Virus record (IMG/VR): IMGVR_UViG_3300005098_000046
Location: 1-62,898 of that record
Strand: one strand, 5' to 3'
Length of the DNA: 62,898 bases
Source: a virus
Taxonomy: Duplodnaviria; Caudoviricetes
In this document: positions 38,570 through 58,926 of the stretch, piece by piece
Position numbering within the stretch: position 1 is the stretch's first letter
How the letters are laid out: every line of letters starts with the position of its first letter
The notes under the pieces: model-generated
Told to the model about the DNA's origin: nothing
Databases searched by the model: none
Seen by the model: only the letters and a program-made list of their open reading frames with translations
Position numbers and translations under genes: made by a program

Positions 38570-38592
38570 TCTCTCCTCAGGAGGCATCGACG

Positions 38593-39531: not shown

Positions 39532-39612
39532 GCCCGCAGCGGAGAAAGGGGCTGGCGTATAACACGCACCGCGCCGGCCCCTTCGCATTCTTCTTCGCCG
39601 GGAGGGTCGCCA

Positions 39613-42294
39613 GTGTCTCTTGATAGAATACGCGAAGCCGCTGCACGCCAGATAGACAAAATCATCGGCGAGTATGTACAGCTTTCACGAGCAGGCAGTG
39701 AGTGGCGGGGGATATGCCCGTTTCATACCGAGCAACGCCCCAGCCTATACGTTGGCGACGGCGTGTGGTATTGCCACGGTTGCGGTGCCGGCGGTGATGC
39801 CTTCACCTTCGTGCAGAAGATTGAGCATTGCTCCTTCGCCGAAGCCGTAGAGATTATCGCGCGGCGGGTCGGCATACCTCTCGACCGCGCACAACAGGCC
39901 GAGCGCGTCAAAGCCGAAGGACTGGAGCGCGCCGTCTCTCTTCTCTACCAGGAGCTTCTTCAGCACATCCGCACAATCTCTGCTGAAAGAGGCTATAGCG
40001 GCCAAGTGCAAGCATACCTCTGCGAACGCCGGGGCATTCTGCCTAACGTTGTTGAGCAGTCACTGGCCGTATTCAGTGCGCCAGAGACGCTGCGCGTGCT
40101 TGAAGAATTGAAAAGCAAGACACCCGAAGGCGTTTGGGCGCGAAGCGGACTCGGCGCCACGCCGCCAGACTTCTGGCGCAGCCGCGTCATCATTCCTATC
40201 GTCATACGTGGGCGCATCGTCAACATGTACGCGCGCGCCGTCGGCGAAAGCCAAAAGCCACATCTGTACCTTGCATCGCGCGCGCGGTTCCCGTGGGGGC
40301 TTGACCAAGCACGCAAGCGCCGCACCGTAGTGCTTACAGAAGCTATCATCGATGCGATGAGCGTGCTTTCAGCGCTTAGCCCGGACGATAATCTGGGCGT
40401 CGCAGCGCTTCTCGGCACCAACGCCAACGAAGCGCTTGTGCGCCGTCTGCGTGCGTTCGACAAAGCTATCATTTGCTTCGATTGCGATAAAGACTCGCTG
40501 GCCGGGCAGAAAGCCGCACTGAAGCTGGCCGGTATGCTTTCGCAAAACGGCATCACTGTAGAGATTGCCGACCTTGCCAGTAGCGGAACCCCACCGCCAG
40601 TAGACCCCAACGAATTGCTAATCAAAGCCGGCCCGGAAGTCTTGCATGAATGTGTGCTCCACCCAGTCTCGCCGCTTGAGTTCCGCCAGAAATGGCAAGT
40701 TGACCCCGGCAAGTCGCTGCTGGTGCGCGAAGGTAGTATCTGGCGGCTGACGTGCGGCGGCGGCGTAGTCTTTGAAGTGCAGCACATAGACACCTCTGAC
40801 CCGCGCGGGCTTCGCGCTGTCGTTATCGCGCGCGACGGCAAGCGCATTCTCAACAAGTCGGCGGTGCCGCTTTGGAGTGATGTCGCCCGGTCACGTTTCG
40901 CTAGCAAATGCGCCCAGAACGGCATCCAGCGCGGCGACGTTGAAGGCTGGTTACTTACGCTTGACGAAGAGCTTCAACGGCTCGTGGCCGATACGGAAGT
41001 CGTACCCAGCGAAGAGGAACACGCAGCAACAGAAGTGGAGATTGACCCAGAGGATAAAGAGAAAGCGCTTGAGTGGCTGACCAGCCCGCACTTGTTGCAA
41101 TCGCTATACGGTCACCTGGACCTGATGGGCATAGTCGGCGAGCAGACGTGCGCGCTGGTGACGTATCTGGTGATGGCCAGTCGCAGGATGTTCAAGCCGC
41201 TGTATCTCATCATCAAAGGCGAATCGTCCACCGGCAAAAGCCACATACTGACCACCATCGCCAAGCTGTGCCCACCAGACGAATGCAGAGAATTATCGCG
41301 TATGACAGCGCAAGCGCTTTTCCGCGTCCCACCGGATTGGGCCAAGCACCGCTTCTTGATACTTCAAGAGCGCGTCGGCGGCGAAGACGCCGACTATTCG
41401 CTGCGCACGATGATGAGCGAAGAGGGGCTTGTGCTGCTGGAAACAGCGAAAGACGAAACCGGCAACCTTGTCACGCAAGAGCGCGTGGTGGAAGGCCCGA
41501 TGGCGTATGCTGAAACCACTACCGCCATGCAGATAAACTTCGAGAACGAGACGCGCTTGATAGAGCTTTCGCCGGACGACTCCCCAGAGCAAACGGAGCG
41601 CATTCACGAATACCAGCGCTTTCTTGCAACCGAGGCCGGGTTAGAGGCCGAAGTCTTCCGCGAAGAAGTTATGCGGCTTCACCACGCCGCGCAGCGCTTG
41701 CTTCAGCCGATTGCGGTTGTTATACCGTTCGCAGAATTGCTGTCGTTCCCTACCGATAAGGCGCGCTTTCGGCGTGACCACGACAAGCTACTGCGGCTGG
41801 TGCGCGTCGTGGCGTTTCTCCATCAGCACCAGCGCGAAGTACAACGGCTTGAAACCCCCGCCGGGACGAAGGAGTACATCGAGGCCACGCCAGAAGATTA
41901 TGAGATTGTCTATGACATAGCCGACAGCTTGTTCGCATCAGCGCTTCAAGACTTGGACGAACGGACCGCGCGCGTCTTTGCGGCCATGACGGAGCTTGCG
42001 CGCAAGCGTTACATAGCGGCCCATCCATCGTTGATGGAAGAACCAACACCTGACCAGATAGCGGCCGTCGGTTTGTCGCTGGCGGATATTCGGCCATACG
42101 CGCGCTTGCGCGATAGCACGCTGCGGAGAGTACTGCAGTACCTGGTGGATATTGACTACGTCAATGCCGAGAAGCGCGGCCGTTCGCTGGTGTATAACGT
42201 AACATACATTGACGATGGCAGAGGCATTACGGACTATCTGATTTCCCCGGTTGAGTTGCGGCGTCAATTACAGGCTGAAGCGCTTCGCGAGTGA
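39613..42294 (+). CDS. DnaG-type primase (CHC2 Zn finger + TOPRIM) fused to a P-loop ATPase/helicase
   Basis: CPFHTE..CHGC, TEAIIDAMS, CFDCD, DPNE; IKGESSTGKS Walker A; C-terminal winged-helix-like end. Confidence 0.88.
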   Translation: MSLDRIREAAARQIDKIIGEYVQLSRAGSEWRGICPFHTEQRPSLYVGDGVWYCHGCGAGGDAFTFVQKIEHCSFAEAVEIIARRVGIPLDRAQQAERVKAEGLERAVSLLYQELLQHIRTISAERGYSGQVQAYLCERRGILPNVVEQSLAVFSAPETLRVLEELKSKTPEGVWARSGLGATPPDFWRSRVIIPIVIRGRIVNMYARAVGESQKPHLYLASRARFPWGLDQARKRRTVVLTEAIIDAMSVLSALSPDDNLGVAALLGTNANEALVRRLRAFDKAIICFDCDKDSLAGQKAALKLAGMLSQNGITVEIADLASSGTPPPVDPNELLIKAGPEVLHECVLHPVSPLEFRQKWQVDPGKSLLVREGSIWRLTCGGGVVFEVQHIDTSDPRGLRAVVIARDGKRILNKSAVPLWSDVARSRFASKCAQNGIQRGDVEGWLLTLDEELQRLVADTEVVPSEEEHAATEVEIDPEDKEKALEWLTSPHLLQSLYGHLDLMGIVGEQTCALVTYLVMASRRMFKPLYLIIKGESSTGKSHILTTIAKLCPPDECRELSRMTAQALFRVPPDWAKHRFLILQERVGGEDADYSLRTMMSEEGLVLLETAKDETGNLVTQERVVEGPMAYAETTTAMQINFENETRLIELSPDDSPEQTERIHEYQRFLATEAGLEAEVFREEVMRLHHAAQRLLQPIAVVIPFAELLSFPTDKARFRRDHDKLLRLVRVVAFLHQHQREVQRLETPAGTKEYIEATPEDYEIVYDIADSLFASALQDLDERTARVFAAMTELARKRYIAAHPSLMEEPTPDQIAAVGLSLADIRPYARLRDSTLRRVLQYLVDIDYVNAEKRGRSLVYNVTYIDDGRGITDYLISPVELRRQLQAEALRE

Positions 42295-43402: not shown

Positions 43403-43431
43403 AACATATCACAAACATACTTTGCTGTCAA
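43403..43431 (-). promoter_or_regulatory. Sigma70-type promoter of the six-HTH gene
   Basis: TTGACA (43431-43426), 17 nt, TGn-TATGTT (43408-43403). Confidence 0.7.
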
Positions 43432-43439
43432 TCGCGCCG

Positions 43440-44120
43440 CCACAATTTGGCCATAATGGGCTGCTCATAGGCGCCCGGACGCCGCGCAAACAGCTGTTTT
43501 CAGAGGCCATTTGTGACGGCGAGTTCTAAAAGTCTCTCATGTTGTAGTTAGGTGCGATTGCGATGTACGCGTTTGGAACGGTTGCACTTTACTACAACAT
43601 GATAGATTTGTTCGACGAACGCTTCGCGGCAGGAAAGTGTATAATCGTGGCCGCTTTGCAAACCGACGAACGATACGAGCTTTTTGGCGTGACTGTGTTA
43701 CCAACATGCCAAAATTAATTTTCAATTGCAGCCAGCCGCGCCCGAAAATGATATGTAAGAAATCACTGTTTGGCACGGGGTCTGTATGCAGTCTGTCGCC
43801 GAGTCTACGTTGCGGCAATGACAGTCACAGAAAAAACACGCAGCTAATTATCGAAACTCACGACTCTTTTGATGATACAAACGATGTGGTGCGGTTAAGA
43901 AACCGTTGCAACATTTCCAGAGAGAGAGTCTTACAAACTCAACACGGCTTTTTGGTGTTGTGTATATCTCTGTTCTCGGTGAAAAGTTGCAACGGTTGAT
44001 TAAGTGTTATTCGCAAATGATATGAAAGAAACTATCGCTAAGCCCTATCAATAAGCGCTTGAAATGTGGGAGCGGTGTGTCTCTGTGGCGAAACTGTTGC
44101 AGAAGAAAATTACGCAAGCA
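43440..44120. other. AT-richer non-coding region, candidate replication origin
   Basis: No credible CDS; inverted repeat AACCGTTGCAAC (43901-43912) / GTTGCAACGGTT (43986-43997); 16-bp direct repeat TGGCGTGACTGTGTTA (43685, 44131). Confidence 0.5.
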
Positions 44121-44121
44121 C

Positions 44122-44150
44122 TTGACAAGCTGGCGTGACTGTGTTAGACT
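44122..44150 (+). promoter_or_regulatory. Sigma70-type promoter of the middle operon
   Basis: TTGACA, 17 nt, TGn-TAGACT. Confidence 0.75.
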
Positions 44151-44169
44151 ACTGGCAAAGCTGGAGGTG

Positions 44170-44448
44170 ATGCCCGTGTCTACGGAGAGGGAAAACTATA
44201 TAATCATCGGCGCCTACAAGCAAGGTCTGCTCGTCTCGCGCTGCGACCGCAACGGCAAAGAACTTGACCCCAACAACCGCTTCCTGGCTTGCCCAGTCTG
44301 CTTCTCTACCGTGCGCGGCGGCGGAGTCCTCGCCGCCGGCTCCTGCTCTAATTGCGGTTGGGCGCCGCCACGCCCCGAACCCGAATCTACTGTTCCACTG
44401 CTCGACCCCACTATCCTCGCCGGCATCCAGCGCGCCCTGAGTAGGTGA
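44170..44448 (+). CDS. Small Zn-ribbon protein
   Basis: CPVC...CSNCG; GGAGGTG RBS; start is 44170 or GTG 44176. Confidence 0.65.
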   Translation: MPVSTERENYIIIGAYKQGLLVSRCDRNGKELDPNNRFLACPVCFSTVRGGGVLAAGSCSNCGWAPPRPEPESTVPLLDPTILAGIQRALSR

Positions 44449-44454
44449 GGCCCA

Positions 44455-45069
44455 GTGCTTACTACCATCGCTCTCCTTTCCACTACTACTACTACTATTA
44501 CTATCTTTATGCCTACTACTATAGTGTGTAGTAAAATATATTACTACAGAAAGGTGTATACTCTACATGACCACCCGGTGCTTACTCCCCAGTCGCTCAC
44601 CAGCCGCTGGCAACCGTCTATGCCCGCCGAACGCTTCATCGCCGAACTCCGTATCATCAATCCATTACCGCCGTGGCAACCACACCAGCCAGTACACGTG
44701 CCTATGTACTTCCCTACACGGCTGCTCCCAGGCGCCACTCTCCACCGCTGGCTCACCGCCGTCAAAGTCGGCCAGCACTACAATATCGACCCAGCGCTCA
44801 TCATCGCTATCGCTTCACACGAAAACCCCTACCGCGATGACTATGCCTGCGGCGTCAAGGTCGCCAAAGGCACCAACCTTCATATCCAGATGGACTGGTG
44901 TGCGCGTATCATCATCCGTGTCTGCCGCCGGCGCCACGTATCACCACGCCCACCCACGCGCCGTATGCTACAAGCTATAGGTCCTATATACTGTCCCACT
45001 GACCCAGCCTGGGCATCCCAAGTGTGGACACTGTACAAACGTGCAATAGGAGGTCGTCACCATGACTGA
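44455..45069 (+). CDS. Lysozyme-fold/transglycosylase-like protein
   Basis: YNIDPALIIAIASHEN (catalytic Glu position), IGPIYCP..W; start uncertain. Confidence 0.6.
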   Translation: MLTTIALLSTTTTTITIFMPTTIVCSKIYYYRKVYTLHDHPVLTPQSLTSRWQPSMPAERFIAELRIINPLPPWQPHQPVHVPMYFPTRLLPGATLHRWLTAVKVGQHYNIDPALIIAIASHENPYRDDYACGVKVAKGTNLHIQMDWCARIIIRVCRRRHVSPRPPTRRMLQAIGPIYCPTDPAWASQVWTLYKRAIGGRHHD

Positions 45070-45346
45070 TGGTCTTCTGCCAGCCGTCTTTATTCTGCTG
45101 GCGCTTATCGGCTTTGGCTTCCTTATCGCTACCGGTATCTGCGAAGGCGCCTTCTGGCATACCATCCCACACGCTACCGTCGTCGTCGCTACTCCCGACG
45201 GGCATACCCCATTCATCCTTCATACCGGCGAAGTCCGCTTCCACGGATCTAAGCTAATCCTCCTCCCCAGCCGTGCGCAATTCCCGGTCTCCGCTATAAC
45301 AAGTGTCCGTATCACAATTGACCCTTCTGTCGCACCACTGGAGTGA
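45062..45346 (+). CDS. Small membrane protein
   Basis: N-terminal TM helix; AGGAGG RBS. Confidence 0.65.
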   Translation: MTDGLLPAVFILLALIGFGFLIATGICEGAFWHTIPHATVVVATPDGHTPFILHTGEVRFHGSKLILLPSRAQFPVSAITSVRITIDPSVAPLE

Positions 45347-45525
45347 AATCCTATGCGTCTTTTTTCACTGCGTAAAATACGCCGCTCTTGCTATCGCCTT
45401 GGCTCACTGCTCGGCTGGATTAATGCCACTGCTTCCGGCCCCGCAGCGCTGTTGCGCAGAACCGTCAACGTCTTCATCGGCCGCAATATCGTCCGCCGTA
45501 TCTGGTGGCGCAGGAGGTGAATAGC

Positions 45526-45915
45526 ATGGACCCGCTTATTAAAATGCCTACACTCCATCTCATGTTCGCCGACACGCAATTCGCTGATATACTCGCCGGC
45601 CGTAAAACTGCCACCATCCGGCCGGGCTTCCTCCCAGCCGCCCCTAATCAGCTACTACAATGCCACTCGGTCTCTGGCGCCGCTACCAACCAAATGCGCA
45701 TCGTCGAAGTCTACCACGGCCCCGTATCCCATCTCTCCTTCCAGCAGCTTCGCCGCGCCGCTCCAAACGTAGTCAGCCCCTATACGCCTACGCCAACCGC
45801 ACGCGAAAAAGTCCGCGCTCTTCTCAAAGAACTCTCCGGCCAACCAGTCTCCTTCGCGGATAGCGTGACGTATATCTATTGGACACCGCCAAGGGGGTTC
45901 TCAGATGAAGAATGA
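45526..45915 (+). CDS. ASCH-domain protein
   Basis: LMF...ILAGRKTATIR signature; RBS CAGGAGGTGA. Confidence 0.8.
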   Translation: MDPLIKMPTLHLMFADTQFADILAGRKTATIRPGFLPAAPNQLLQCHSVSGAATNQMRIVEVYHGPVSHLSFQQLRRAAPNVVSPYTPTPTAREKVRALLKELSGQPVSFADSVTYIYWTPPRGFSDEE

Positions 45916-46483
45916 TATTCCATTCCCGCCTGCTTGGCCTGCGTGGGTCGTGATTGATAAGTGCGACTATGAACCATTTTGGGTGGCGGCCCCTACGCCG
46001 CAACATGCCCGCGAATGGGTCGCCCACGAGTGTGTCGGCCACCCATCTCTGTATCCAGCTAAACCGCTTAGCGTGCTCCGCCGACGCCTGTGGGCAACCC
46101 CCACGCCGCTCATCTGGTTCGCGCGCGGCTGGATGGACTATGCGGCCGTCTGTATCCGCGGCAATGACTACGATGAATGGCTCGGATGGTCACTCGTCCT
46201 AACATGCGAGCTCGGCCCACAGTGCGACACTGCGATGATAGATGAAGTGCTTACCGCGCTCGTCGCAAACGCTCTTGATGACCAAGACCCAGCATGGGGC
46301 ACTGTTTATTGCCCCGCTATGGCTCACGCATTCCTCTTCGTGCCCAGCCGCTCCGTCGTGCGCCAAATGAAACAAGCACTTGCAGACGGCTCTATGGTTC
46401 CACCAGGCGATGTCGTCGATGCTCGATGTGTCGCATTCTTGCATGATACTGCTTCATTGCCAGGTTGGACCGTCAAGAGGTGA
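45905..46483 (+). CDS. Hypothetical protein
   Basis: 192 aa, overlaps upstream stop. Confidence 0.6.
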   Translation: MKNDIPFPPAWPAWVVIDKCDYEPFWVAAPTPQHAREWVAHECVGHPSLYPAKPLSVLRRRLWATPTPLIWFARGWMDYAAVCIRGNDYDEWLGWSLVLTCELGPQCDTAMIDEVLTALVANALDDQDPAWGTVYCPAMAHAFLFVPSRSVVRQMKQALADGSMVPPGDVVDARCVAFLHDTASLPGWTVKR

Positions 46484-46489
46484 TGTATC

Positions 46490-46948
46490 GTGATTAAGCC
46501 AGCTATTACACTGAAGGTTATCCGCGTGGAATGGCCAACCGCTTGCCCGGAAATCCGCGCCGCTGACTTGGCCAACTTTTCCTGCCGCCCCGATGCCGAA
46601 GCCCTAGCCTTCGAGGAACGCCAGGGGCGCGCCATCGCCGCCCTCTTCCTCGACTCATCCCCCTCAATCGTTGAAGTCCAGGCCCTCCCCGGCAGCGGCT
46701 CAGTCTTCGTCTTCTGGCTCGCTTACGTCTACGACGCACGCGAAGAACTGCCAGCACGCTTGCTCGTCGCTGAACCCGGCTTGCACGCCTCTATGGTCCT
46801 TTCCGTCCAGCCCGGTATGATTCTTCACTGGTCCTATCTCTATGAGAAAATGCCGGCTCTCGGCAAACACTACGAAATCGTTCGCATCGCCGGCTTGCTC
46901 GGTGCTATCCGTGACGCTCTCGCCCGCTCACACGCGGGCGCGGATTGA
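46490..46948 (+). CDS. Hypothetical protein
   Basis: GAGGTG RBS, 152 aa. Confidence 0.6.
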   Translation: MIKPAITLKVIRVEWPTACPEIRAADLANFSCRPDAEALAFEERQGRAIAALFLDSSPSIVEVQALPGSGSVFVFWLAYVYDAREELPARLLVAEPGLHASMVLSVQPGMILHWSYLYEKMPALGKHYEIVRIAGLLGAIRDALARSHAGAD

Positions 46949-46976
46949 AACATTATGGTCCCAAAGGAGGATGACT

Positions 46977-47315
46977 ATGCAGCCCACATGGAGATGGTAC
47001 TGGGAAGGCATCCTTGTTCGCATACTGCGTGTGCTTGACTTTATTCTGCCGCCGCAAGGCGCGCAAGTTATACTGGACCCCGACGACCATATCATCATTC
47101 ATCGCCGCTCGCGCTTCGGCCTCTTCTGCGAACGCAAGCGTCTCCGTATCGCTATCTGGGTCGGCGACCATGCAAATATCTGCCGACTCTGGCTCGCGTG
47201 CTGGCAGCTCGGCGGCCACCACAACACTGTCACGGCCCCTAACCAGCCTGCCTGCATTAACTGGCATATCGCCGAAGAATGCCGCGTCTGCAAAGGAGAA
47301 ACCCAACATGGCTAA
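46977..47315 (+). CDS. Hypothetical protein
   Basis: AAGGAGG RBS; ATG 46971 or 46977. Confidence 0.6.
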   Translation: MQPTWRWYWEGILVRILRVLDFILPPQGAQVILDPDDHIIIHRRSRFGLFCERKRLRIAIWVGDHANICRLWLACWQLGGHHNTVTAPNQPACINWHIAEECRVCKGETQHG

Positions 47316-47514
47316 GCGCAAGAAACGCAAATCTGAAGAACCGGACATGTATGTCCAGAACCTGCCGGATGACCCCGGCGTGCTGAAGGCACTGCTTCTG
47401 CTTGTGCTTAACATTGCTGGTCATGGAGACCTGTATACGATGGGTGCCATCCTGCGCGGTTGCTGGGATGAATTGTGTAACCTCAGGCCAGATTTACGGG
47501 AGAATGCATCATGA
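47308..47514 (+). CDS. Small hypothetical protein
   Basis: AAGGAG RBS, MAKRKKRK start. Confidence 0.6.
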   Translation: MAKRKKRKSEEPDMYVQNLPDDPGVLKALLLLVLNIAGHGDLYTMGAILRGCWDELCNLRPDLRENAS

Positions 47515-47876
47515 AACTACGCGACTTCATCTGTCTGCCAGGCGACGGTTGGGAACCCTACGACGGTGCCTACTTCTTGCCAAAAGATACCACCAACGTT
47601 GGCATCGAACTGGTGTTCTATAAAAACGGCAAACGCTGGAGCGCCCCAGGCAGGAAAGTCTTCCTGCGCCTCTATGACCATCGCCGCTTCTGGTTGCGCG
47701 ATTACGAACTTTATGTCAGCGACGACGGCACGGCTATCTGGCGCCCAGGCTCGCTGGCCTCAGGCGTCTATTATATTCGGTGCCGTACAACGAATGATGA
47801 AGTGAGTAATTTCATCCGTTGGCGCACCGCGCTTAATGAAACGACAGAACGGCTTGTAGGCCCGATTTGCTGTTGA
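47511..47876 (+). CDS. Hypothetical protein
   Basis: ATGA overlap, 121 aa. Confidence 0.6.
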   Translation: MKLRDFICLPGDGWEPYDGAYFLPKDTTNVGIELVFYKNGKRWSAPGRKVFLRLYDHRRFWLRDYELYVSDDGTAIWRPGSLASGVYYIRCRTTNDEVSNFIRWRTALNETTERLVGPICC

Positions 47877-48397
47877 AAATACGTCGAATCTCGCACGTAT
47901 GTTTCATGGAGGGCTTGCTTGTGCGATACAAGATACCCAAGCAATTCTTCATCTGGCCGATGTGGAATGCGGCAGTAGTGGGGCATGAGCGGTGGTACAT
48001 CCCGGCGCGGAATCGCCGTGAAGTATCGAACTATTTAGCGGCGCAAGGTGTAGCGCGTTCAGAAGTGTTACGTGTGGAAGGCTTGACGATGCGTTGGCGG
48101 CGTGTTTGGGCGACGACGGCCCCGGCTGCTGTGTTGCGGCTTGGCATGGCAGAGTATGTATTCGTGCAGATTATGTTCCCGGAGCCGATGTTGTTGCCGG
48201 TGTATGTAGAGTCGGAGGTTACCGATGCTGTGGATGTGCTGGAGATGACGGCGGCGTTGGATGATGGCGGCCCGGTGTACTGGGCGAGTGCAGAGGCCGA
48301 CAATAAGGTGTGGTACTATTTTCTGCCGCACAAGACGTATGCTGGTGTATGCAATGCGCGGCTGAAGGAGAGTGGGGGCCTGTGGAAACTCGATTGA
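47867..48397 (+). CDS. Hypothetical protein
   Basis: 176 aa ORF continuing the operon; start uncertain. Confidence 0.5.
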   Translation: MLLKIRRISHVCFMEGLLVRYKIPKQFFIWPMWNAAVVGHERWYIPARNRREVSNYLAAQGVARSEVLRVEGLTMRWRRVWATTAPAAVLRLGMAEYVFVQIMFPEPMLLPVYVESEVTDAVDVLEMTAALDDGGPVYWASAEADNKVWYYFLPHKTYAGVCNARLKESGGLWKLD

Positions 48398-48422
48398 CGC
48401 GGGTGCTGTGCGGTGCTACAAT
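48394..48422 (+). promoter_or_regulatory. Sigma70-type promoter of sRNA2
   Basis: TTGACG, 17 nt, TGn-TACAAT. Confidence 0.75.
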
Positions 48423-48425
48423 TAG

Positions 48426-48495
48426 GCCCCCGAAAGGGGCGTCACCTCCTGGCCTCGCCTGCCTTGGCCGCGTGGCGGGCGAGGCTATTTTATTT
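48426..48495 (+). ncRNA. Predicted anti-Shine-Dalgarno small RNA (sRNA2)
   Basis: CCCC-GAAA-GGGG hairpin, single-stranded GUCACCUCCUG, then a terminator; bracketed by promoter and U-tract. Confidence 0.65.
48452..48495 (+). terminator. Intrinsic terminator
   Basis: GCCTCGCCTGCC / GGCGGGCGAGGC 12-bp stem then TATTTTATTT. Confidence 0.8.
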
Positions 48496-48617
48496 GGCGA
48501 CATGCTTCCCTGCTGCCGAGGAGAGACGCTGCTATGTTCGCCGTGAACATTGATGACCTGGAGATGTATGTGAAGGAGAGCGGCTTGGCGATGCAACAAG
48601 AGGGAGAGTGATGCTCT

Positions 48618-49190
48618 ATGTGGCGCAAACACTACTACTGGCCGTGGCTGGAGATTGGCCCGCTCCGGTTGTATGGCGTTGACAAGCGGCGCGGCCGCGA
48701 AGCGTGGTGGCGTGTAGAATGCTGTACTGGGACCGGTCCCCGGAGACGGCTGCCGCTTGAGAATTGGCATCACAGCGAATGGCGTAAGCGGCGGTTCCCG
48801 CTTGCCAATCTTGATGAAGTCATAGCGGCGGTGCGGCATGTTGTCGGCGAATGGCTTGACGAGCATGGCGTGTACATTGTGGATACTGACCCGGCTGCAT
48901 ATCGGCGCGGCTTGCAATACGCTTCGGCGATTGCGCTGGTGAACCCGCAGGTGCCGTGGCGCAGCGAGAAGATATTCGGCGCGCGGCACTTCGACTATCT
49001 GTGCAGCGAAGCGGCGGTTGACCTGATGCGGACGGCTAGTACTGGTGAATATGTAGATGGTGTCAAGTACAGCACGGACCTGGCCTTGCTGATTGACATT
49101 GCGGTTGCCGAAGCTGCGGTGCTGCATGGCTTGCTGGCGTGGGCGCAGAACGCCTGGAACTATGGAGGTGTGCAACGCAATGAGGATTAA
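48618..49190 (+). CDS. Hypothetical protein
   Basis: 190 aa, GAGGGAG upstream. Confidence 0.6.
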   Translation: MWRKHYYWPWLEIGPLRLYGVDKRRGREAWWRVECCTGTGPRRRLPLENWHHSEWRKRRFPLANLDEVIAAVRHVVGEWLDEHGVYIVDTDPAAYRRGLQYASAIALVNPQVPWRSEKIFGARHFDYLCSEAAVDLMRTASTGEYVDGVKYSTDLALLIDIAVAEAAVLHGLLAWAQNAWNYGGVQRNED

Positions 49191-49380
49191 AGCTACTCGT
49201 GTACGCGCAGAGGAACTGAAGCCTGGCGACTTGTTCTCCATAGCCGGCCCAGAATGGTGGGACCATCATGATGAGCTGGCGCCCGGTGCGATAGGGCAGA
49301 AGGTCTACATCCGCACGGAAGCGCCGTGCCCGTTAGACCAAAAGGACGACGAGGTGTATCGCATCACCATCGAGAGGTGA
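49180..49380 (+). CDS. Small hypothetical protein
   Basis: GGAGGTG RBS, 66 aa. Confidence 0.65.
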   Translation: MRIKATRVRAEELKPGDLFSIAGPEWWDHHDELAPGAIGQKVYIRTEAPCPLDQKDDEVYRITIER

Positions 49381-49385
49381 CCGCC

Positions 49386-49682
49386 ATGCTAACGGTGCTG
49401 CTTTGCTTTCTATGCGCAGCCGCCGGGTTCGGCCTCGCTTGTCTTGTGGCCGCTGCGAAACTTGCCGACCAGCAGTCCCAGTCCTTCGCCAGCCAACTCC
49501 GCGCCACACGCGAAGTGCTTGATTTCTTAGACGAGCTTATCGACCGCCGCGCGGAATCCGACATGAGCATTGCGCACGATGCCGGCCGCCGTGCCGCCGT
49601 TGAGCATTTGAAGCACCACCGCCACAGCGCCGTTGCTGGTGTGCGCCGATTGATGGACGACTTCTTTCGGGGGATAGATTGA
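49386..49682 (+). CDS. Small membrane-anchored protein
   Basis: GAGGTGA RBS, N-terminal hydrophobic helix. Confidence 0.65.
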   Translation: MLTVLLCFLCAAAGFGLACLVAAAKLADQQSQSFASQLRATREVLDFLDELIDRRAESDMSIAHDAGRRAAVEHLKHHRHSAVAGVRRLMDDFFRGID

Positions 49683-49683
49683 C

Positions 49684-49929
49684 ATGGGCTACAAACCACG
49701 TGACTGGTTGCTGGCACTCGCGCGTCTTGACTTGATTGGGCGCTTCTCGCAACGCGACCGCGAAGCGGTTGCTGATATTCTGGTATGGGAACTGGAGCAG
49801 ACCCCGGACCGGCCGTTCACCATTCAACAAGCACGTGATATGATGGCGCTCGGCACCATCACGCCAGCCATGCTGCGCGTATTTGAAGCCGTGCACAATC
49901 TCTTGCGCCAAGAGGACGCCGATGACTGA
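49684..49929 (+). CDS. Hypothetical protein
   Basis: 81 aa, tightly packed between neighbours. Confidence 0.6.
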   Translation: MGYKPRDWLLALARLDLIGRFSQRDREAVADILVWELEQTPDRPFTIQQARDMMALGTITPAMLRVFEAVHNLLRQEDADD

Positions 49930-50650
49930 TATGCCTCTCCACGTAGAAGAAGCGTTCATGCATTTCAACATTGCACAGTGGCTGCGCTGGCAGCACTATG
50001 TGTCTGTGCGCGAAGCCCCGCTTCCGTGGGGGCTTGGCGGCCGCATCGACGTTGTCGGCTTTGACCCGAACACTGATATGCTTATCGGCGTTGAAGCCAA
50101 GCTCCAGCCGACAGATGAAGTGCTTGACCAAGCTGAGCGCGCGAAAGACTATTGTGAATACGTATACGTCGCGCTGCCCGGACATGCTGGTGCAGATTTC
50201 GTGCGGCGGGTTGCGGCTATCGGCGTGGGCTTGCTGAACGTAGATGCCCGCGAGCGGCGAACAAAACCGCCGTGGGGTGTCGATGAACAGCTTGCGCCGA
50301 AAGGTTGTAGCCCGCCGCACAAGCAAAAGCTACTGGAGATTGTCGAAGAAGTCGCGGAGTTTCTGCAAGGCAAGAATCCGCGCTGTATCTTCAAGCGGAT
50401 ATGTATCTTTCGAGCGCCGTCTGGCAAATGTTTGCTGCCGCAGCCGACGCTGGAATTGACATCGCAAGGTGGATGGACCTGTCGGTCGGCGCTGACGCTG
50501 GCGCAAGCGGTCAAGCAAGCGGAGATACCACGTGCGGTGCGTGACCCGGAAGTCAGCGCGGCGCTTCGCGTCGCAGCCGAACATTATCCGCGTGTGCGTA
50601 AGGTGCTGGACAACCCGTACCATGACAAGCTGACGAAAGGCTGGAGCTAA
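49922..50650 (+). CDS. PD-(D/E)XK nuclease-fold protein (MmcB-like)
   Basis: REAP...GRIDVVG...GVEAK, DQA..Y, YVYVALP, GVGLL. Confidence 0.75.
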   Translation: MTDMPLHVEEAFMHFNIAQWLRWQHYVSVREAPLPWGLGGRIDVVGFDPNTDMLIGVEAKLQPTDEVLDQAERAKDYCEYVYVALPGHAGADFVRRVAAIGVGLLNVDARERRTKPPWGVDEQLAPKGCSPPHKQKLLEIVEEVAEFLQGKNPRCIFKRICIFRAPSGKCLLPQPTLELTSQGGWTCRSALTLAQAVKQAEIPRAVRDPEVSAALRVAAEHYPRVRKVLDNPYHDKLTKGWS

Positions 50651-51193
50651 ATGGACACCGTGCGCCTTCAGATAGCTGGCCGGGCCAAAACCGAGCGCAA
50701 GCGGCTCGTCTTCGTCGGCGGCACGCCGCGCCGCGTAGACACGCCGGACCGCCAGAGCTGGAAAGCGCGCGTCGCTGAAGCAGCTTATGCAGCATACGAA
50801 GAAGCCGTCGCTGACGGTGCTGAACTCCCGTTCAGTGGCCCGGTGTTGCTTCATGTTATCTACGTGAAGCCGCTGCCGAAAAGCCGGCCGAGCAAGCCGA
50901 CAAAGAAGTGGCCGCTGCCGACAGCTTTCATCACCAAACCGGACATCGTGGACAATCTCACCAAGCCGCTCATCGATGCTTGTAGTGGCATTCTCTGGCA
51001 CGATGACCAGCAGATAGTCGCGGCTATCGTGGCGAAGGTTTATCAGCAACGCCCGGCTGCTGAACAAGTGTTCATCGCTGCGGCCGGCAACTTCGTCACA
51101 CCAGAAGAGCTTGAAGCCGATGGTATGCGTTTTCTTTTCCGGCAACTTCAAGAGACTCAGATGCTATTGACCGGCCGTAAGCGTTTGACATAA
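50651..51193 (+). CDS. rusA: RusA-family Holliday junction resolvase
   Basis: KPDIVDNLTKPLIDACSGILWHDDQQIV. Confidence 0.88.
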   Translation: MDTVRLQIAGRAKTERKRLVFVGGTPRRVDTPDRQSWKARVAEAAYAAYEEAVADGAELPFSGPVLLHVIYVKPLPKSRPSKPTKKWPLPTAFITKPDIVDNLTKPLIDACSGILWHDDQQIVAAIVAKVYQQRPAAEQVFIAAAGNFVTPEELEADGMRFLFRQLQETQMLLTGRKRLT

Positions 51194-51205
51194 ACTATCC
51201 GCGCT

Positions 51206-52369
51206 ATGCGCATTCCACCGCCACAACGTCCGAAGCGCGACCAAGAACCGGTGCCGCCGTCGTCGTGCAACGATGGCTTGCCGTGCGCTGAATGTCCGTT
51301 CAGAAAGAATGGCTTTTGCCCCGGCTGCCGTGGCCATATCCGCTATTGCATTCAGTCTTCGTGTATTGGCACCAAGTGCGAGCGATGCGTTACCCACGCG
51401 CAGAAGCAGCGTTTTGTCCCCAGCGTTTGTGGTCGCTCGCCGCTGCTGCAACACTTCTATAATCATTTTGTTATCCTGCACAACCGCGTTGAGCAGATGC
51501 TGGAGACGATGCCGGCGCGCGGCCCGCTGCCCCCGTTGCCGAAGCATATCCCGTATGTGCAGTACATGGATGTCGGCCTAATCGGATTGTTCGGCTACAA
51601 AGCGGTGGCCATTCATATTGACCGCTATGACCCGCGCTGGCTGCCAGAAGTCGGCATGAAAACTATCCACGAATTGCTCGGGCTTGATGACGACTGCGTT
51701 GTCATCCAGATGCTCGAAACCGTTGACGACTATTTGGAGCAACGCTGGCCGAAGCGCTGGTGGGAAGGTCTCGCCGAGTCCGGCGTCACGCTATGGGAGC
51801 ACTTGGTCATCACTGGCTACTGGAACGTCTCGCGTGCTCATGCGCTGTACAATTGTATGCGTGCGATGTACGACTTCCTCGAAAGCGGTGCGCAGATTTA
51901 TATCCCCATCATGCTGGACACGCCGTTTCTCGTGGAGCTTGGCAAGCGTGTTGCGGCGAAGGCGGCGGCGGCTCGGCTTTCGTTTACGACGCTTCATTCA
52001 ACTGAGCGCAAAGAAGATTTGCGTATTAATCTGGCGGCGCTGAAGCTGTACAACGACGTGGTGCTGCCCGAAGGGCAGCCGGTGCTGGTCTACGGCAGCG
52101 TAGACGAGATGCATCCGCTGCGGCGGTACGTGGAAGATGTTATGGCGCAGAAGCACCCGATACATTGGATAGAGCACTTGACGCCGCGCGGCTGGAAGTC
52201 GCAGATGGATGTGGTGCGGCAATGGCGAAGGCGAGTGCTGATACCGGTTTGTAGGCGGCTGCGCGAAACGATGTACAACGGCAAGCCGCTGCACATTGAA
52301 CCTGATGACAAGCTGGTGGAGACGGCCCGGCGGATTGTTGACACGGCGTGGGACGTGCCGAAAGACTAA
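51206..52369 (+). CDS. DUF4417-like protein with Cys-rich N-terminus
   Basis: Multiple CxxC; DDYLEQRW, SRAHALYNCMR, GAQIYIP resemble DUF4417 by eye; adjacent to ParB. Confidence 0.5.
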   Translation: MRIPPPQRPKRDQEPVPPSSCNDGLPCAECPFRKNGFCPGCRGHIRYCIQSSCIGTKCERCVTHAQKQRFVPSVCGRSPLLQHFYNHFVILHNRVEQMLETMPARGPLPPLPKHIPYVQYMDVGLIGLFGYKAVAIHIDRYDPRWLPEVGMKTIHELLGLDDDCVVIQMLETVDDYLEQRWPKRWWEGLAESGVTLWEHLVITGYWNVSRAHALYNCMRAMYDFLESGAQIYIPIMLDTPFLVELGKRVAAKAAAARLSFTTLHSTERKEDLRINLAALKLYNDVVLPEGQPVLVYGSVDEMHPLRRYVEDVMAQKHPIHWIEHLTPRGWKSQMDVVRQWRRRVLIPVCRRLRETMYNGKPLHIEPDDKLVETARRIVDTAWDVPKD

Positions 52370-52383
52370 GTGGGTGAAAGCAA

Positions 52384-53361
52384 ATGACCGCAGATGAGCA
52401 TGTGGATGCAGCGGAAGTAACAGAAGGGGCAGCGGCCCCGGAGCCGGAGATGCCGTCTCATGTAATGTTGATGATGGTGCCGCTGAAGAAGCTGCATCCG
52501 AACGGCTGGAACCCGCACCGGCGCGACCCGTCCATTCAAGAGAAGCTGAAGCGCGGCATACAAGAAACGGTGGAGCGCGGCGATGACATGCCGCCGCTGA
52601 TTGTGCGGCCGCACCCGGAGATTGAAGGCGAGTATGAGATTATTGACGGCGAAGGCCGATACGACATCGCGAAGCGGTTGAAGCTGGAGGCGGTCCCGTG
52701 CCAGATATGGGATGTAGATACGCCGACGGCTATCCGCTTGACGATTGCGCTAAATGAGATACGCGGCCAGCGCGACGAAGACCGCTACTGGGCGGCCATC
52801 GCCGAGTTTGTGACGGCCGGTGGCACGCTGGACACGCTGGAATATTCGATACCTGAGGACCCGGACTTTGTTGTGGCGGGGCTTGACCTTGCGGGGATGG
52901 CGGAGGCGGCGCAATTCCTGGAGGAGATGCTGGACGAAGCGGCGGAGCAGAAAGCTACTGAAGCACAGATGGATGCGCAAGCAGAAACAGCGGCGCCTGT
53001 GGTTGGCGGAGAAGCTGGCGATGCTGAGCCGACAGAAGGTGGTGCCGCTGAAGTTTCAGATGTGCAAGCGGCTGGCGACGCTGGGGAGCAACCTGCGGAG
53101 GGTGAAGAAGGTGCCGAGGATGCGGCGGCGGAGATAGCGCAAGCCGTGCAGCAAGCACAGTCCCGGCAGCAGATGCGTATTTTGCTGCGGCTATACGTTG
53201 GCGAAGACACGCATAAAAAGCTGCTTGCATTGTGTACGGCTCTCGGGCATGATATGCTAACTGAAGAAGCGTTCGCCGACATCGTGGAGCTTGCGATGCG
53301 AAGCATGAATGAAAGCACAGCGGCAGACGAAACACCCGAAGATAATTCGGAGGTGGAGTAA
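52384..53361 (+). CDS. ParB/Srx N-terminal domain protein with acidic linker
   Basis: LHPNGWNP, PPLIVRP, YEIIDGEGR, LNEIRG. Confidence 0.85.
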   Translation: MTADEHVDAAEVTEGAAAPEPEMPSHVMLMMVPLKKLHPNGWNPHRRDPSIQEKLKRGIQETVERGDDMPPLIVRPHPEIEGEYEIIDGEGRYDIAKRLKLEAVPCQIWDVDTPTAIRLTIALNEIRGQRDEDRYWAAIAEFVTAGGTLDTLEYSIPEDPDFVVAGLDLAGMAEAAQFLEEMLDEAAEQKATEAQMDAQAETAAPVVGGEAGDAEPTEGGAAEVSDVQAAGDAGEQPAEGEEGAEDAAAEIAQAVQQAQSRQQMRILLRLYVGEDTHKKLLALCTALGHDMLTEEAFADIVELAMRSMNESTAADETPEDNSEVE

Positions 53362-53655
53362 ATGGCCAAAGGCGGAGGAGCCGCTGGCGTTTCTGGTGGC
53401 GCTGCTGTTGAAAGAGCGACTGTGTTGCCGAACGTTATTACAGCTCGGCTGATAACAGGCGCTGCAGGGGAAGGCCGTGCGCTGCTGACAATCGAGCGTG
53501 CTACTGGCCGCGTCAGAATCGAGACTGGCAATCGCACCATACGCGCCGGCAATCTCGGCCGCACACCTAATCCTCGGACCGACCGTGGCGCTGAGCGCGT
53601 CGCGCGCGATGCGTTGCGCACTCTTGGCATTCGGGTCCTGCCGCGCCGACGGTGA
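53362..53655 (+). CDS. Small basic protein, Gly-rich N-terminus (paralog 1)
   Basis: MAKGGGAAGVSGGAAV; Arg-rich; GGAGGTGG upstream. Confidence 0.8.
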   Translation: MAKGGGAAGVSGGAAVERATVLPNVITARLITGAAGEGRALLTIERATGRVRIETGNRTIRAGNLGRTPNPRTDRGAERVARDALRTLGIRVLPRRR

Positions 53656-53692
53656 TAGTGTCAATGACGATAACACGATGGAGGCGATTACG

Positions 53693-53983
53693 ATGGCCAA
53701 AGGCGGAGGAGCCGCAGGTATTTCCGGTGGCGCTGCCGTTGTTTCCACTGCAGCGCGTGGGCAGACTATCGGCGCCACGTTGGCTACTGGTGAGGATATG
53801 CGCGGCACAGCCGTTGCGGAAATTGACCGTGCAACCGGCACGTTCCGCATACGTTCGGGCAATCGCGTAATCCGTCGCGGTTCGCTTGGGCGCTCGGTAC
53901 GTGCGACGACACAGCGCGGCATCACACGTGTCATAAATGATGCGTTGCGTGCTGCGGGTATCCCGGTGCTTAGGCTGCCATAA
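53693..53983 (+). CDS. Small basic protein, Gly-rich N-terminus (paralog 2)
   Basis: MAKGGGAAGISGGAAV; first 23 nt identical to paralog 1; GGAGG RBS. Confidence 0.8.
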   Translation: MAKGGGAAGISGGAAVVSTAARGQTIGATLATGEDMRGTAVAEIDRATGTFRIRSGNRVIRRGSLGRSVRATTQRGITRVINDALRAAGIPVLRLP

Positions 53984-53991
53984 AACCAACA

Positions 53992-54264
53992 ATGTCTGAC
54001 AATGGCGACGATGTTGATGTGCTGCTGGCATTAGCCGGCGAGCCGCGAAACGGCGTCCTGCCTGGTGGTGCGGGTGCAACAAGGATGGGAGACGAGCAAC
54101 GAATTGCTCGTCTCCTGTCTTTGACTCCAAGCAAGTGGGCGGTACTCCAGATGGCCGTTGACAAGGTTTGTGCTATCTGCAACGCTCCTATAGCTTTCGG
54201 CGATGCGCTCGTCTTGATTTGTGCTGATTTTCTTGCTGGAGCTGACCCGCGTTCTTATGAGTGA
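53992..54264 (+). CDS. Hypothetical protein
   Basis: 90 aa; ALVLICADFLAG end resembles ParB-associated C-terminal helices. Confidence 0.5.
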   Translation: MSDNGDDVDVLLALAGEPRNGVLPGGAGATRMGDEQRIARLLSLTPSKWAVLQMAVDKVCAICNAPIAFGDALVLICADFLAGADPRSYE

Positions 54265-54913
54265 CGAAGCTGATAAGCAGCAAGAGAAAGCCCCGGCGAA
54301 ACGGCGCAAAGGTGGCCAAAAAGGCTATCCGGATAGCTTCGTGCGTTACGTGCGCACGCTGTGGGCGTCCGGTAGTTTCGATACAGACATTGAACTCGGC
54401 GAGTTTTGCGGTGTGCCGGCGCCGACTATCCGACACTGGCGCGCGGAGAAGCGGCCGGATGGGATTGACTGGCACGAATTGCGCCGCGAATTGTCGCGAC
54501 AGCGCCAAGAATTGCTGACGAAAGAAGCCGCTGAAACGCAAGCCGGCTTGGTGCGCCGATACCGCGCTGTGGTGTCGGCGCTTATTCGTGCGGCGCTGGC
54601 GTTCGCACGCGGCGAGAAGGTATACGATGAGAAGGGGAACCCTATCCTGTTGCCAGAATTGGCTCCGCGCAGCTTCGGCGAAGCTGTGCAGATGGTTATC
54701 CGGCTGATTAACCTCGATATGATGCTCAGTGAAGTGGTGGACGATACATTTGACATTATGGACAAGGCTGCCATGCTGGTGCGGCAAGCGATGGAGCAGG
54801 CAGATATACCGGTAGAGATGCGCCAGAAGGTTGCCGACCAGCTCATGAGACTAATCAGCGGTGCGGAGCTGCAAGACAATGGTGGACCCGGTGTTGGCAC
54901 AAAAGATAGCTGA
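54257..54913 (+). CDS. Terminase small subunit
   Basis: HTH ELGEFCGVPAPTIRHW..W, helical remainder; directly upstream of large terminase. Confidence 0.7.
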   Translation: MSDEADKQQEKAPAKRRKGGQKGYPDSFVRYVRTLWASGSFDTDIELGEFCGVPAPTIRHWRAEKRPDGIDWHELRRELSRQRQELLTKEAAETQAGLVRRYRAVVSALIRAALAFARGEKVYDEKGNPILLPELAPRSFGEAVQMVIRLINLDMMLSEVVDDTFDIMDKAAMLVRQAMEQADIPVEMRQKVADQLMRLISGAELQDNGGPGVGTKDS

Positions 54914-56606
54914 CATTTTGTACATTGAGGACATGCCGCGAGTGCCGCAGATGTACGTGCCGGAACTCCCGGCGCCGAGTGTCTTCGTGACGCACCCAGA
55001 GTACTTGGGGCTGGGCGATGAGCCGTTCCCACACGTGCTGGAAGTGCTCGACGAGATACTGCTGGGTGGCTACAGCGAAGCGTATCTCTGCTGGGGCATC
55101 GGGTCCGGGAAAAGCTACCTCTCGTCTCTTGCGCTTGCTTACATTGCCGCAGATGTGCTACGCCGCATGGCGCTCGGCGAGTTCTGGTCGGATTACAACT
55201 TGGCCGAAGGCACGCTGGTGCAGCTTGGCTGCTTTGCTGGCACGTATACGCTGGCGCGCGAAGTGGTTTTTGAAGAGCTACAATCGAAGCTGGCGCAGTC
55301 GCCGTGGTTTGAGAAGTACTTCCCGGTGGACCCGAAGGTGAAGCGTTATTTGCGCTTCTTGCTCGGCTCGACGCCGTATCAGATGCGCTTGCTGATAGCC
55401 CCGTATGGATGTAGCCGGCGGTCGGCGCTCGGCCGCAACATGTTTGCGGCTGTCATTGATGAAGCGTCTTGGTGGGAACAGCGCGGCGAGCAGACTCGTG
55501 CGCGCATCGTCGGCGAAGCCAACGACATCGCACAAGAGCTTTATGAACGCGTTGACCAGCGCATCCGCTCGCGCTTCGGCGAAGAGGGCCTGGTAATCAG
55601 CATCTCATCCGCGCGCTCGGTAGACGACTGGATACAACGCAAGCTGCGCGAAGCTGAAGATGACCCGCGCATATTTGCGGAGTGCTTGCCGACATGGAAG
55701 GTCAAGACACGCTGGCGGCGCAAGGAAACGTTTGAGCTTGATGGCGAGGAGATACCTATTGAGCTTAAGCCGGCGTTCGACCGCGACCCAGAACGCGCGT
55801 GGCGCGATTATGGTTCGCGGCCGTTCTATGCGCATCAGCCGTTCGACCCACACGCTGCGGACATTTTCAGCGAGCCGCCGCCGCCGTTCGGCCGTGGACC
55901 AGACCCGCAGTTTGCTAACCCGGTTGATAGCGACTGGAAGACGCTATGGAATGCCGAGCAGTTCGACAAGATTGTACCGAGCTTAAGCATCACGCCGGCG
56001 GTGCGGTACTACATGCATATCGACCTGGGGCTTACTGGTGATGCGATGGGCTTGGCCGTGGCGCACGCGGAGAAGATGGAGGAGTGGGAGGACCCGGTAC
56101 TGGTGGTGTTGGACTTTACGCTGCGCTTGCTGCCAGAAGAATGTGGCGGCGAGATACGCATAGCGAGCATTCGCGAGTTCATCTATGCATTCATCAAGCG
56201 CTATAAGCGTGATGGCCTGGCGGAGCTTTTCGTCAGCATGGACGGCTTCCAGTCGGCCGACTGCTTGCAGCTTCTGCGCGAGCGTGGTGTGCCGGCGTAT
56301 GTGATGAGCGTAGACAAATCTACGGCATACTATGACTTGAAGGAGCTACTACACAGCGGTCATTTGTTGTATGCTGATGATGATTTCTGGATGCGGCGCG
56401 AGTACATGCGGCTTGAGTACCAGCGCGGCCGGATTGACCATCCGCCTGAAGGCAGCAAAGACGTTGCTGATGCTGTAGCGGCTGCGTGTGCTCAAGCGGC
56501 GGCATGGGGGCGTTCGCAGTGGGGCAGTGCGCGCCCGCCGTCGTTGCGCGTGGAGCGCAACCGCCAGCATGTGGCCGACATCATGACCCGGAGGGGAGCG
56601 CTATGA
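54879..56606 (+). CDS. Terminase large subunit
   Basis: Walker A GIGSGKS, Walker B AVIDEA, ISISS, nuclease HIDLG, DGFQS, DHPPEGSKDVADA. Confidence 0.93.
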   Translation: MVDPVLAQKIADILYIEDMPRVPQMYVPELPAPSVFVTHPEYLGLGDEPFPHVLEVLDEILLGGYSEAYLCWGIGSGKSYLSSLALAYIAADVLRRMALGEFWSDYNLAEGTLVQLGCFAGTYTLAREVVFEELQSKLAQSPWFEKYFPVDPKVKRYLRFLLGSTPYQMRLLIAPYGCSRRSALGRNMFAAVIDEASWWEQRGEQTRARIVGEANDIAQELYERVDQRIRSRFGEEGLVISISSARSVDDWIQRKLREAEDDPRIFAECLPTWKVKTRWRRKETFELDGEEIPIELKPAFDRDPERAWRDYGSRPFYAHQPFDPHAADIFSEPPPPFGRGPDPQFANPVDSDWKTLWNAEQFDKIVPSLSITPAVRYYMHIDLGLTGDAMGLAVAHAEKMEEWEDPVLVVLDFTLRLLPEECGGEIRIASIREFIYAFIKRYKRDGLAELFVSMDGFQSADCLQLLRERGVPAYVMSVDKSTAYYDLKELLHSGHLLYADDDFWMRREYMRLEYQRGRIDHPPEGSKDVADAVAAACAQAAAWGRSQWGSARPPSLRVERNRQHVADIMTRRGAL

Positions 56607-58924: not shown

Positions 58925-58926
58925 GC

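Follow-up and report, generated by a model that had tools for sequence, protein, structure and literature searches.

A small transcription unit and its predicted anti-RBS RNA at the early/late border of an orphan phage genome

Known RNAs that cover ribosome-binding sites and a phage unit that resembles them

Phages and bacteria encode RNAs that act on the ribosome-binding site (RBS) of an mRNA. P22 sar, P1/P7 c4 and lambda OOP are phage RNAs of about 70 nucleotides (nt) that pair with the RBS region of a regulatory gene and block its translation (PMC12197685). Staphylococcal and Bacillus small RNAs (sRNAs) with a UCCC motif, such as RsaE and the loops of RNAIII, use this C-rich motif to pair with the Shine-Dalgarno (SD) sequence, which prevents the initiation complex from forming (PMC2790875). 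In the icaR mRNA of S. aureus, the SD at the 5' end is bound by an anti-SD in the molecule's own 3' untranslated region (UTR), close to where the transcript ends (PMC3868564). P22 sar, P1 c4, the UCCC-motif sRNAs and the icaR 3' UTR are the nearest precedents for the element analysed here, a unit at positions 48394-48495 of the IMG/VR virus record IMGVR_UViG_3300005098_000046 (Duplodnaviria; Caudoviricetes). The window, that is, the whole stretch of DNA that was analysed, is the entire record, a single contig of 62,898 bases with 59% G+C. We favour, tentatively and at somewhat less than an even chance, the reading that this unit encodes an antisense RNA directed against the RBSs of the phage's own rightward early (early-right) operon, and that its likeness to the 3' tail of 16S rRNA is a by-product.

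The locus resembles each of these systems in part. The UCCC sRNAs combine a hairpin at the 5' end, a C-rich motif left unpaired and a classical terminator; the hairpin and the terminator are also predicted here, and the C-rich motif would be unpaired with some transcription starts and paired with others. Those RNAs are host-encoded, conserved across species and experimentally shown, whereas the present one is phage-encoded, carries a full 9-nt copy of the 16S tail and shows no homology in Rfam at the gathering score (PMC2790875). As in icaR, the match links the two ends of one transcript, here over 13 bp between the 3' end of the early-right operon and the start region with which the operon opens. 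In contrast to the monocistronic icaR, the two sites lie 4.3 kb apart in an operon, the unit has its own promoter, and the seed is predicted to be mostly paired in long 3' ends (PMC3868564). Phage c4 and its target belong to one operon, with c4 upstream, and a possible cis site at 48603 would stand in a similar relation to the present unit. The RNAs sar and OOP are cis-antisense, from the opposite strand; here the RNA is encoded 4.3 kb from its main target and its seed is a generic anti-SD (PMC12197685). DapZ, MicL and MicX are 3'-UTR sRNAs with a promoter at or just before the upstream stop codon and a terminator shared with the mRNA. The same arrangement is seen here, with the stop codon (48395-48397) of the last early-right open reading frame (ORF) inside the -35 element and a single terminator behind it; unlike this RNA, they are Hfq-dependent enterobacterial or Vibrio sRNAs with other seeds (PMC9438474). 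Finally, in lambda PR'-tR' (6S RNA) and in StxS of Stx phages, RNA polymerase meets a terminator right after leaving a constitutive late promoter, ahead of the late genes, and the short RNA can regulate in trans; the present unit likewise has a strong promoter, a terminator within about 200 nt and a position directly upstream of late genes (PMC7547250).

The first-pass annotation had described a promoter, a hairpin, a CCUCC segment and a terminator at this locus, and all four are present where it placed them (Table 1). The promoter matches the consensus at 10 of 12 positions and has an extended -10 (TGn). Because the stop codon of the last early-right ORF lies within its -35 element, the terminator is also the end of the early-right operon. 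This terminator ranks with the strongest of the genome and lies ahead of the late genes; it is a strong hairpin with a U-tract, as had been claimed, with 14 + 2 predicted base pairs rather than 12. The 72-nt RNA folds at -41.1 kcal/mol (z -4.5), and none of 200 shuffled sequences folds as well. The linker between the two hairpins contains UCACCUCCU, identical over 9 nt to the conserved 3' tail of 16S rRNA. Each strand of the 62,898 bases holds a single copy of CACCTCCT, the one on the minus strand being a real RBS at 45512. Judged from sequence alone, a promoter of its own (10/12, TGn) and a terminator hairpin with U-tract delimit a short predicted RNA, and 48394-48495 is a real, well-formed small transcription unit at the early/late border.

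The alternative that the motif is simply the RBS of a minus-strand ORF is rejected. After AGGAGGTGA, the only nearby start codon is a TTG followed directly by TAG. A 340-aa ORF at 48219-49241(-) is antisense to real genes on the plus strand, and it has no start codon past the RBS-like motif. A search of the whole window with Rfam gave no match at the gathering score. The best sub-threshold match, sX13, reaches 19.8 bits against a gathering score of 50; it is driven by the terminator and starts upstream of any plausible transcription start site.

Table 1. Coordinates of the unit, of its predicted targets, of related units and of the gene blocks in the window
Feature	Position	Strand	Description
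Sigma-70-type promoter	48394-48422	+	TTGACG (48394-48399), 17-nt spacer, TGc-TACAAT (-10 at 48417-48422)
Small 5' hairpin	48426-48440	+	GCCCC/GGGGC with 5-nt loop, or CCCC-GAAA-GGGG
Linker GUCACCUCCUG	48441-48451	+	unpaired in the 72-nt fold
Extended antisense segment GGGGCGUCACCUCC	48436-48449	+	complements start regions 44163-44175 and 48603-48617
Intrinsic terminator	48450-48495	+	GC-rich hairpin 48450-48487, 14 outer and 2 inner pairs, then UUUUAUUU
Predicted main target GGAGGUGAUGCCC	44163-44175	+	from the SD through position -1 of the gene that opens the early-right operon (GTG 44176)
Possible cis target GGAGAGUGAUGCUCU	48603-48617	+	RBS of 190-aa gene (ATG 48618), 170 nt downstream
25-codon ORF (candidate gene)	48534-48611	+	own SD GAGGAG at 48519; stop codon within the possible cis duplex
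Sister unit	25584-25689	-	leftward-operon 3' UTR; promoter-like TGGACA-18-TATACT, predicted RNA of ~70 nt, ACCCUCCUCAUCGG directly 5' of strong terminator
Third unit	59222-59338	+	TTGACA-17-TGgCATACT, predicted RNA of ~80 nt, strong terminator; between portal-side and scaffold/capsid genes
Leftward operon	promoter-like site 36188 down to 25654	-	near-invariant RBS cassette
Replication block	36561-42294	+	
Divergent control region	43431-44122		promoters 43431(-) and 44122(+)
Rightward early (early-right) operon	44176-48397	+	
Long rightward block	48534 to record end, continuing from base 1 to ~25600	+	

Complementarity to the phage's own start regions

To locate complements of the linker and its flanks, both strands were scanned with the query 48436-48452 (25,148 windows; mean -11.5, s.d. 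3.3). Apart from the query's own antisense, the top complement is 44163-44175, where 48437-48449 can pair over 13 bp without interruption, with a single G-U among them, at -29.3 kcal/mol. The site lies about 7-19 nt past the start expected from the promoter at 44122-44150, which puts it at the extreme 5' end of the predicted transcript, and both pairing partners lie on the transcript predicted from promoter 44122 to terminator 48495. The gene behind the site encodes a 90-aa zinc-ribbon protein whose matches in the protein atlas are confined to unnamed or zinc-ribbon clusters. The complementary RBSs listed in the first-pass annotation are all present: CAGGAGGTGA at 45511, CCAGGAGG at 43381(-), CAGGAGG at 36546 and 38578, and GAGGTGAC at 1968 and 49374. 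The list had missed the best site, and the proposed repression of 'middle genes' was not borne out, the best target being the first early-right gene.

Significance was assessed in 1000 trials in which the CACCUCC core was held fixed and the flanks were either randomized or permuted, the latter keeping their G-rich composition. With random flanks, the best of 72 start regions reached -29.3 kcal/mol in 1.1% of trials, and the per-site P values were 0.004 for the gene at 44176 and 0.002 for that at 48618.

Under the antisense reading, a sigma-70-like, host-type promoter overlapping the stop codon would fire and drive an RNA of about 58-70 nt that ends at the strong intrinsic terminator; the operon mRNA may carry the same segment at its 3' end. 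GGGCGUCACCUCC, an inverted near-copy of the first early-right start region GGAGGUGAUGCCC that also fits other GGAGGUGA-type SDs of the operon, would be exposed and would pair in the cell with early-right start regions, chiefly that of 44176. This pairing would block binding of the 30S subunit, and early-right translation would in consequence be damped or shut off. Phage T4 shuts off early translation with RegB, a protein endonuclease that recognizes the SD (GGAG) of early mRNAs and is thus, unlike the element proposed here, not an RNA. General ribosome mimicry is not implied: the simplest account of the 16S-tail identity is that the RNA repeats, in inverted form and almost exactly, a start region whose canonical SD is 9 nt long.

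The leftward operon ends in a unit of the same build. This sister unit (25689-25584(-)) lies past the last leftward ORF, with no genes behind it, and folds at -37.4 kcal/mol (z -5.4). Its segment ACCCUCCUCAUCGG is the exact complement of the leftward RBS cassette, start codon included, and fits the 14-17 leftward GAGGAGGGU cassettes, just as GGGCGUCACCUCC fits the rightward GGAGGUGA type. Its duplexes average -25.6 kcal/mol over 18 leftward start regions (best -34.9) compared with -10.1 to -13.7 kcal/mol in the other groups. The unit at 48394-48495 may therefore be read as the rightward counterpart of the leftward one, such that each early operon would end in an RNA complementary to its own RBSs. 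A pair of RNAs sorted by RBS class had been suggested in the first-pass annotation. That suggestion holds in so far as a second unit of the same build carries a different, leftward-specific anti-RBS (-25.6 vs -10 to -13 kcal/mol); it fails in that the rightward 'class' amounts to strong SDs (r 0.88, see below).

Promoter-terminator pairs of this kind are not scattered at random. We defined a strict promoter class by a -35 element matching at least 5 of 6 positions, a 17-nt spacer, at least 10 of 12 matches overall and a TGn. The genome holds four such sites, against a mean of 0.06 in a first-order Markov simulation in which none of 100 runs reached four. They lie at 43431(-), 44122(+), 48394(+) and 59222(+), and each precedes a gene block in the correct orientation. 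A strong terminator follows 10-110 nt downstream of 3 of 7 promoter-like sites (10/12), compared with 2.2% of genome positions (binomial P 3e-4). Small units that run from promoter to terminator recur in this phage more often than chance would predict. Together with the anatomy, the promoter enrichment (4 vs 0.06) and the terminator coupling uphold the earlier view of 48394-48495 as a self-contained small RNA gene.

The same figures bear on the simplest account of the locus, namely that it is a plain operon terminator at which the promoter match and the CCUCC run arose by chance, with no separate RNA function. Terminators are expected at operon ends, base composition alone predicts about 0.8 copies of the 8-mer per strand (a rough estimate), and the functional reading was made after the fact. 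We nevertheless give this account only a slim chance: the enrichment of the promoter class, the coupling of promoters to terminators and the parallel unit on the other early operon all argue against it.

Seed exposure, rival explanations and the search for relatives

Several results weigh against the antisense reading, and the first concern the statistics of the match. When flanks were permuted rather than randomized, the best-of-72 P was only 0.075 and the per-site P for 44176 was 0.073; the targets were, moreover, chosen after the scan. Across 73 start regions, pairing of the 11-nt linker tracks generic pairing of the 16S tail (r 0.88), and the preference for early-right start regions is p 0.01 for the RNA as against p 0.006 for the 16S tail itself. 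At the level of classes, the RNA simply prefers strong canonical SDs and no more.

Exposure of the seed is a second difficulty. The 5' end assumed in the first-pass annotation, 48426, is 4 nt past the -10 element, which ends at 48422; the usual distance would place the start at 48429 +/- 2. Bases 48427-48431 are all C, and a start at 48429 +/- 2 would cut into the 5' hairpin arm, which is whole only with a transcription start at or before 48428. CACCUCC is predicted to be unpaired with a probability of 0.96-0.97 when the RNA begins at 48426-48428, of 0.59 when it begins at 48429 and of at most 0.015 from 48430 on. The segment that had been called unpaired is indeed so in the 72-nt fold, but its predicted exposure collapses once the 5' end reaches 48430, and at the usual start distance it ranges from 0.59 down to 0.001. 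The GGGG at 48436-48439 can pair alternatively with the 5' CCCC (48427-48431) or with the anti-SD CUCC (48445-48449). For 5' ends at or beyond 48430 the seed is hidden because GGGG then pairs with CUCC, so that, with two alternative partners for GGGG, the position of the 5' end would switch the seed between exposed and hidden. For longer early-right 3' ends, with starts at 48100-48400, the predicted probability of an unpaired seed is 0.00-0.09, in a model that leaves ribosomes on the coding part out of account. Complete 13-bp pairing also requires opening of the 5' hairpin.

The third unit and the sequences of the three units add little to the antisense reading and count on the same side. In the third unit, a C-rich GCCCCCU is predicted to be paired, and a target search yields no outstanding site or convincing anti-RBS. 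The three units show no significant kinship in sequence (P 0.21, 0.39 and 0.99), and given these values we do not call them paralogues.

The search for relatives likewise offers no help. Queried with 1.5 kb of DNA, the unit has no match in phage records, and viral contigs hold nothing for both flanking ORFs, the terminase and a 387-aa ORF. A metagenome scan retained 80 loci out of 149 terminase relatives, those shorter than 4,000 bases being left out; the 80 loci contain four promoter-plus-terminator pairs, none with CCTCC. An exact 19-mer is found in no viral contig and in 13 genome contigs, all 13 in unrelated contexts without hairpins, and several of these matches are the antisense of ordinary RBSs in high-GC bacteria.

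The correlation with generic 16S-tail pairing also bears on the function proposed in the first-pass annotation, that of a general mimic of the 16S 3' tail, an abundant RNA that would titrate the strong SDs of host or 'middle' phage mRNAs. In its favour are the 9-nt identity to the conserved tail and the way linker pairing follows SD strength over the 73 start regions. Yet the complementarity at specific phage sites reaches past the SD on its 5' side, which a pure mimic would not need. Such a mimic would also strike the phage's own strong-SD genes, including the capsid gene, whose RBS (61444) pairs with the RNA at -18.2 kcal/mol, and the exposure of its seed would depend on the 5' end. A literature search of limited coverage found no phage RNA described as a 16S-tail mimic. 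We consider tail mimicry the least probable of the explanations weighed here, and, as set out above, the identity follows more simply from the 9-nt canonical SD of the target.

The second-named complement, 48603-48617, admits a different mechanism. Thirty-eight bases past the terminator begins the 25-codon ORF, followed by the 190-aa ORF and then by closely packed genes that lead on to RusA, terminase and the structural genes. In a read-through RNA, 48436-48449 could mask the RBS of the 190-aa gene and translation of the 25-codon ORF could unmask it, a cis-acting leader working by long-range anti-SD coupling. The pairing is present in both the minimum-free-energy and the centroid structure of the 215-nt read-through RNA; the duplex is worth -24.1 kcal/mol, with per-site P values of 0.002 for random and 0.016 for permuted flanks; and the small ORF is preceded by an SD of its own and stops 7 nt short of ATG 48618. 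On the other hand, the 215-nt fold as a whole is ordinary (z -1.7, with 13 of 200 shuffles as good), the site ranks merely fourth among 72 start regions, the small ORF has nothing but its SD to recommend it, and a strong terminator would have to be read through. We regard a cis-acting leader as improbable.

More credit is due to a transcriptional explanation, a late gate of the lambda PR'-tR' type, in which a phage factor or an RNA signal would enable read-through from a constitutive promoter past its immediate terminator, with the short RNA a by-product and its CCUCC incidental. We rate this as a serious rival, if on the unlikely side. The unit lies directly before the tight block that leads into RusA, the ParB-like protein, terminase, portal and capsid, transcription of the late genes has to get past its terminator, and no other promoter-like site scoring 10/12 is found from 48496 to 59221. 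The third unit (59222-59338) puts the scaffold and capsid genes, too, behind a strong terminator. Scans of 50 ORFs against PHROGs and of 20 against Pfam revealed neither a phage RNA polymerase nor a sigma factor, and late transcription therefore probably uses the host enzyme. The described lambda and StxS cases supply the precedent (PMC7547250).

Against a late gate, no Q-like protein was identified: for the ORF next to the unit on its upstream side (176 or 158 aa), neither a relative nor a family in Pfam or PHROG was found. A tblastn search of phage records with this ORF gave no match, and Pfam, PHROG and the protein atlas no usable one; a word-index search and a full HMMER search returned only the ORF itself and one repeat-protein match (E 1.7e-4 over 25 residues). 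Its AlphaFold2 model is unusable, with a predicted local distance difference test (pLDDT) score of 44. The ORF may encode a new, unrecognizable antiterminator. A lambda-type sigma-dependent pause site was not seen: 48429-48460 lacks any hexamer resembling a -10 element, with A in the second and T in the sixth position. The order of genes also differs from lambda, in that RusA and other 'nin-like' genes lie downstream of the unit rather than upstream, and there is a twin unit without genes behind it (PMC7547250). That twin, the sister unit, has the same build, and with no genes behind it its promoter-terminator pair cannot gate late genes. A gate would, besides, leave the 13-bp match to 44163-44175 unexplained. 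By analogy with StxS, the late gate and the antisense reading appear compatible and could coexist (PMC7547250). A transcriptional role for the locus, as an operon terminator before the late genes, is at least as well founded as the role first proposed for it.

Genome context and implications

The layout of the genome was drawn from ORFs, codon-position G+C and RBSs, and comprises four blocks (Table 1). Late-gene markers, namely terminase (54861), portal (56892), capsid (61444) and a head-tail adaptor (21), identify a tailed phage. The late block also holds the tape measure (4114), a DNA methyltransferase and glycosyltransferases; at 14119-20241 it encodes two glycosyltransferase-like proteins and a nucleotide-sugar epimerase (E 7.5e-66), uncommon cargo among tail genes. 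RusA lies at 50651 and the ParB-like protein at 52384. Genes for replication and control include a helicase (36755), a primase (39613) and, at 43366-42227(-), a 379-aa protein with repeated excisionase-type helix-turn-helix (HTH) units. No tRNA or tmRNA was found in the window. The closest terminase has 28% identity in phage records and 41% among 5.8 billion proteins; on these sequence comparisons the phage is an orphan without close relatives.

Two intergenic stretches outside the unit stand out. Between the leftward promoter-like site and the replication genes, 36270-36475 holds short tandem repeats of 8-9-nt units (for example AGACGCCGT) together with nine consecutive G, and may serve as an origin or as an array of protein-binding sites. 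The control region at 43431-44150, about 700 bp of lower G+C between the divergent promoters, contains the 14-mer GCGTGACTGTGTTA twice, at 43687 and at 44133 within the spacer of promoter 44122, where 0.04 copies are expected, as well as several TTGCAAC-like words. These copies and words are likely operators, and the six-HTH protein from 43366-42227(-) may be what binds them.

The leftward operon, which carries the sister unit, shows further regularities. From 27974 to 35180(-) its genes are preceded by the RBS cassette (C)GATGAGGAGGGTC, then 3-7 nt and an ATG, a uniformity that is unusual over about 8 kb; GAGGAGGGT occurs 14 times on the minus strand. Three inverted copies of the cassette (ACCCUCCUC...) lie on the sense strand of the operon, at 35704-35692(-) in the long structured 5' leader, at 31332-31322(-) in one intergenic region and at 25640-25627(-) in the 3' UTR beside the terminator. 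A fourth sense-strand CCTCC follows a stop codon at 28910. At 25890-26660(-), two intergenic modules, each with the common hairpin GGGGGCCGCAAGGCCCCC, a second hairpin and then an RBS, look like repeated processing or stability elements. A plus-strand gene at 25645 that would use the inverted cassette as its RBS was dismissed as spurious, since two better ORFs on the minus strand, along with the hairpin module between them, overlap it.

Downstream of the third unit, a 690-aa ORF is listed from 59339. It probably starts at 59453, the first in-frame ATG past the unit, although the SD of that start is weak; a start there would leave a non-coding gap of 217 nt. A perfect TTGACA with a poor -10 lies at 59346, past the terminator of this unit.

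A bolder proposal, which we regard as unlikely but worth stating, extends the antisense reading to the whole early programme. This programme would be timed at translation as well, by two orthogonal anti-RBS RNAs that switch off two gene sets independently, the rightward RNA being a literal copy of the 16S tail placed on the terminator of the late gate. Phage antisense RNAs against single RBSs, and C-rich sRNAs that bind SDs, are already known. New, if true, would be whole operons that each have their own RBS flavour and a matching anti-RBS RNA at the 3' end, one of these RNAs copying the 16S tail and sharing its terminator with the gate of the late genes. This would constitute a compact, portable means of shutting off sets of genes post-transcriptionally, and would provide natural orthogonal pairs of RBS and anti-RBS, which synthetic biology had to design. 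The orphan status of the phage, whose nearest terminase is only 41% identical, shows how much regulatory RNA uncultured phages may hide.

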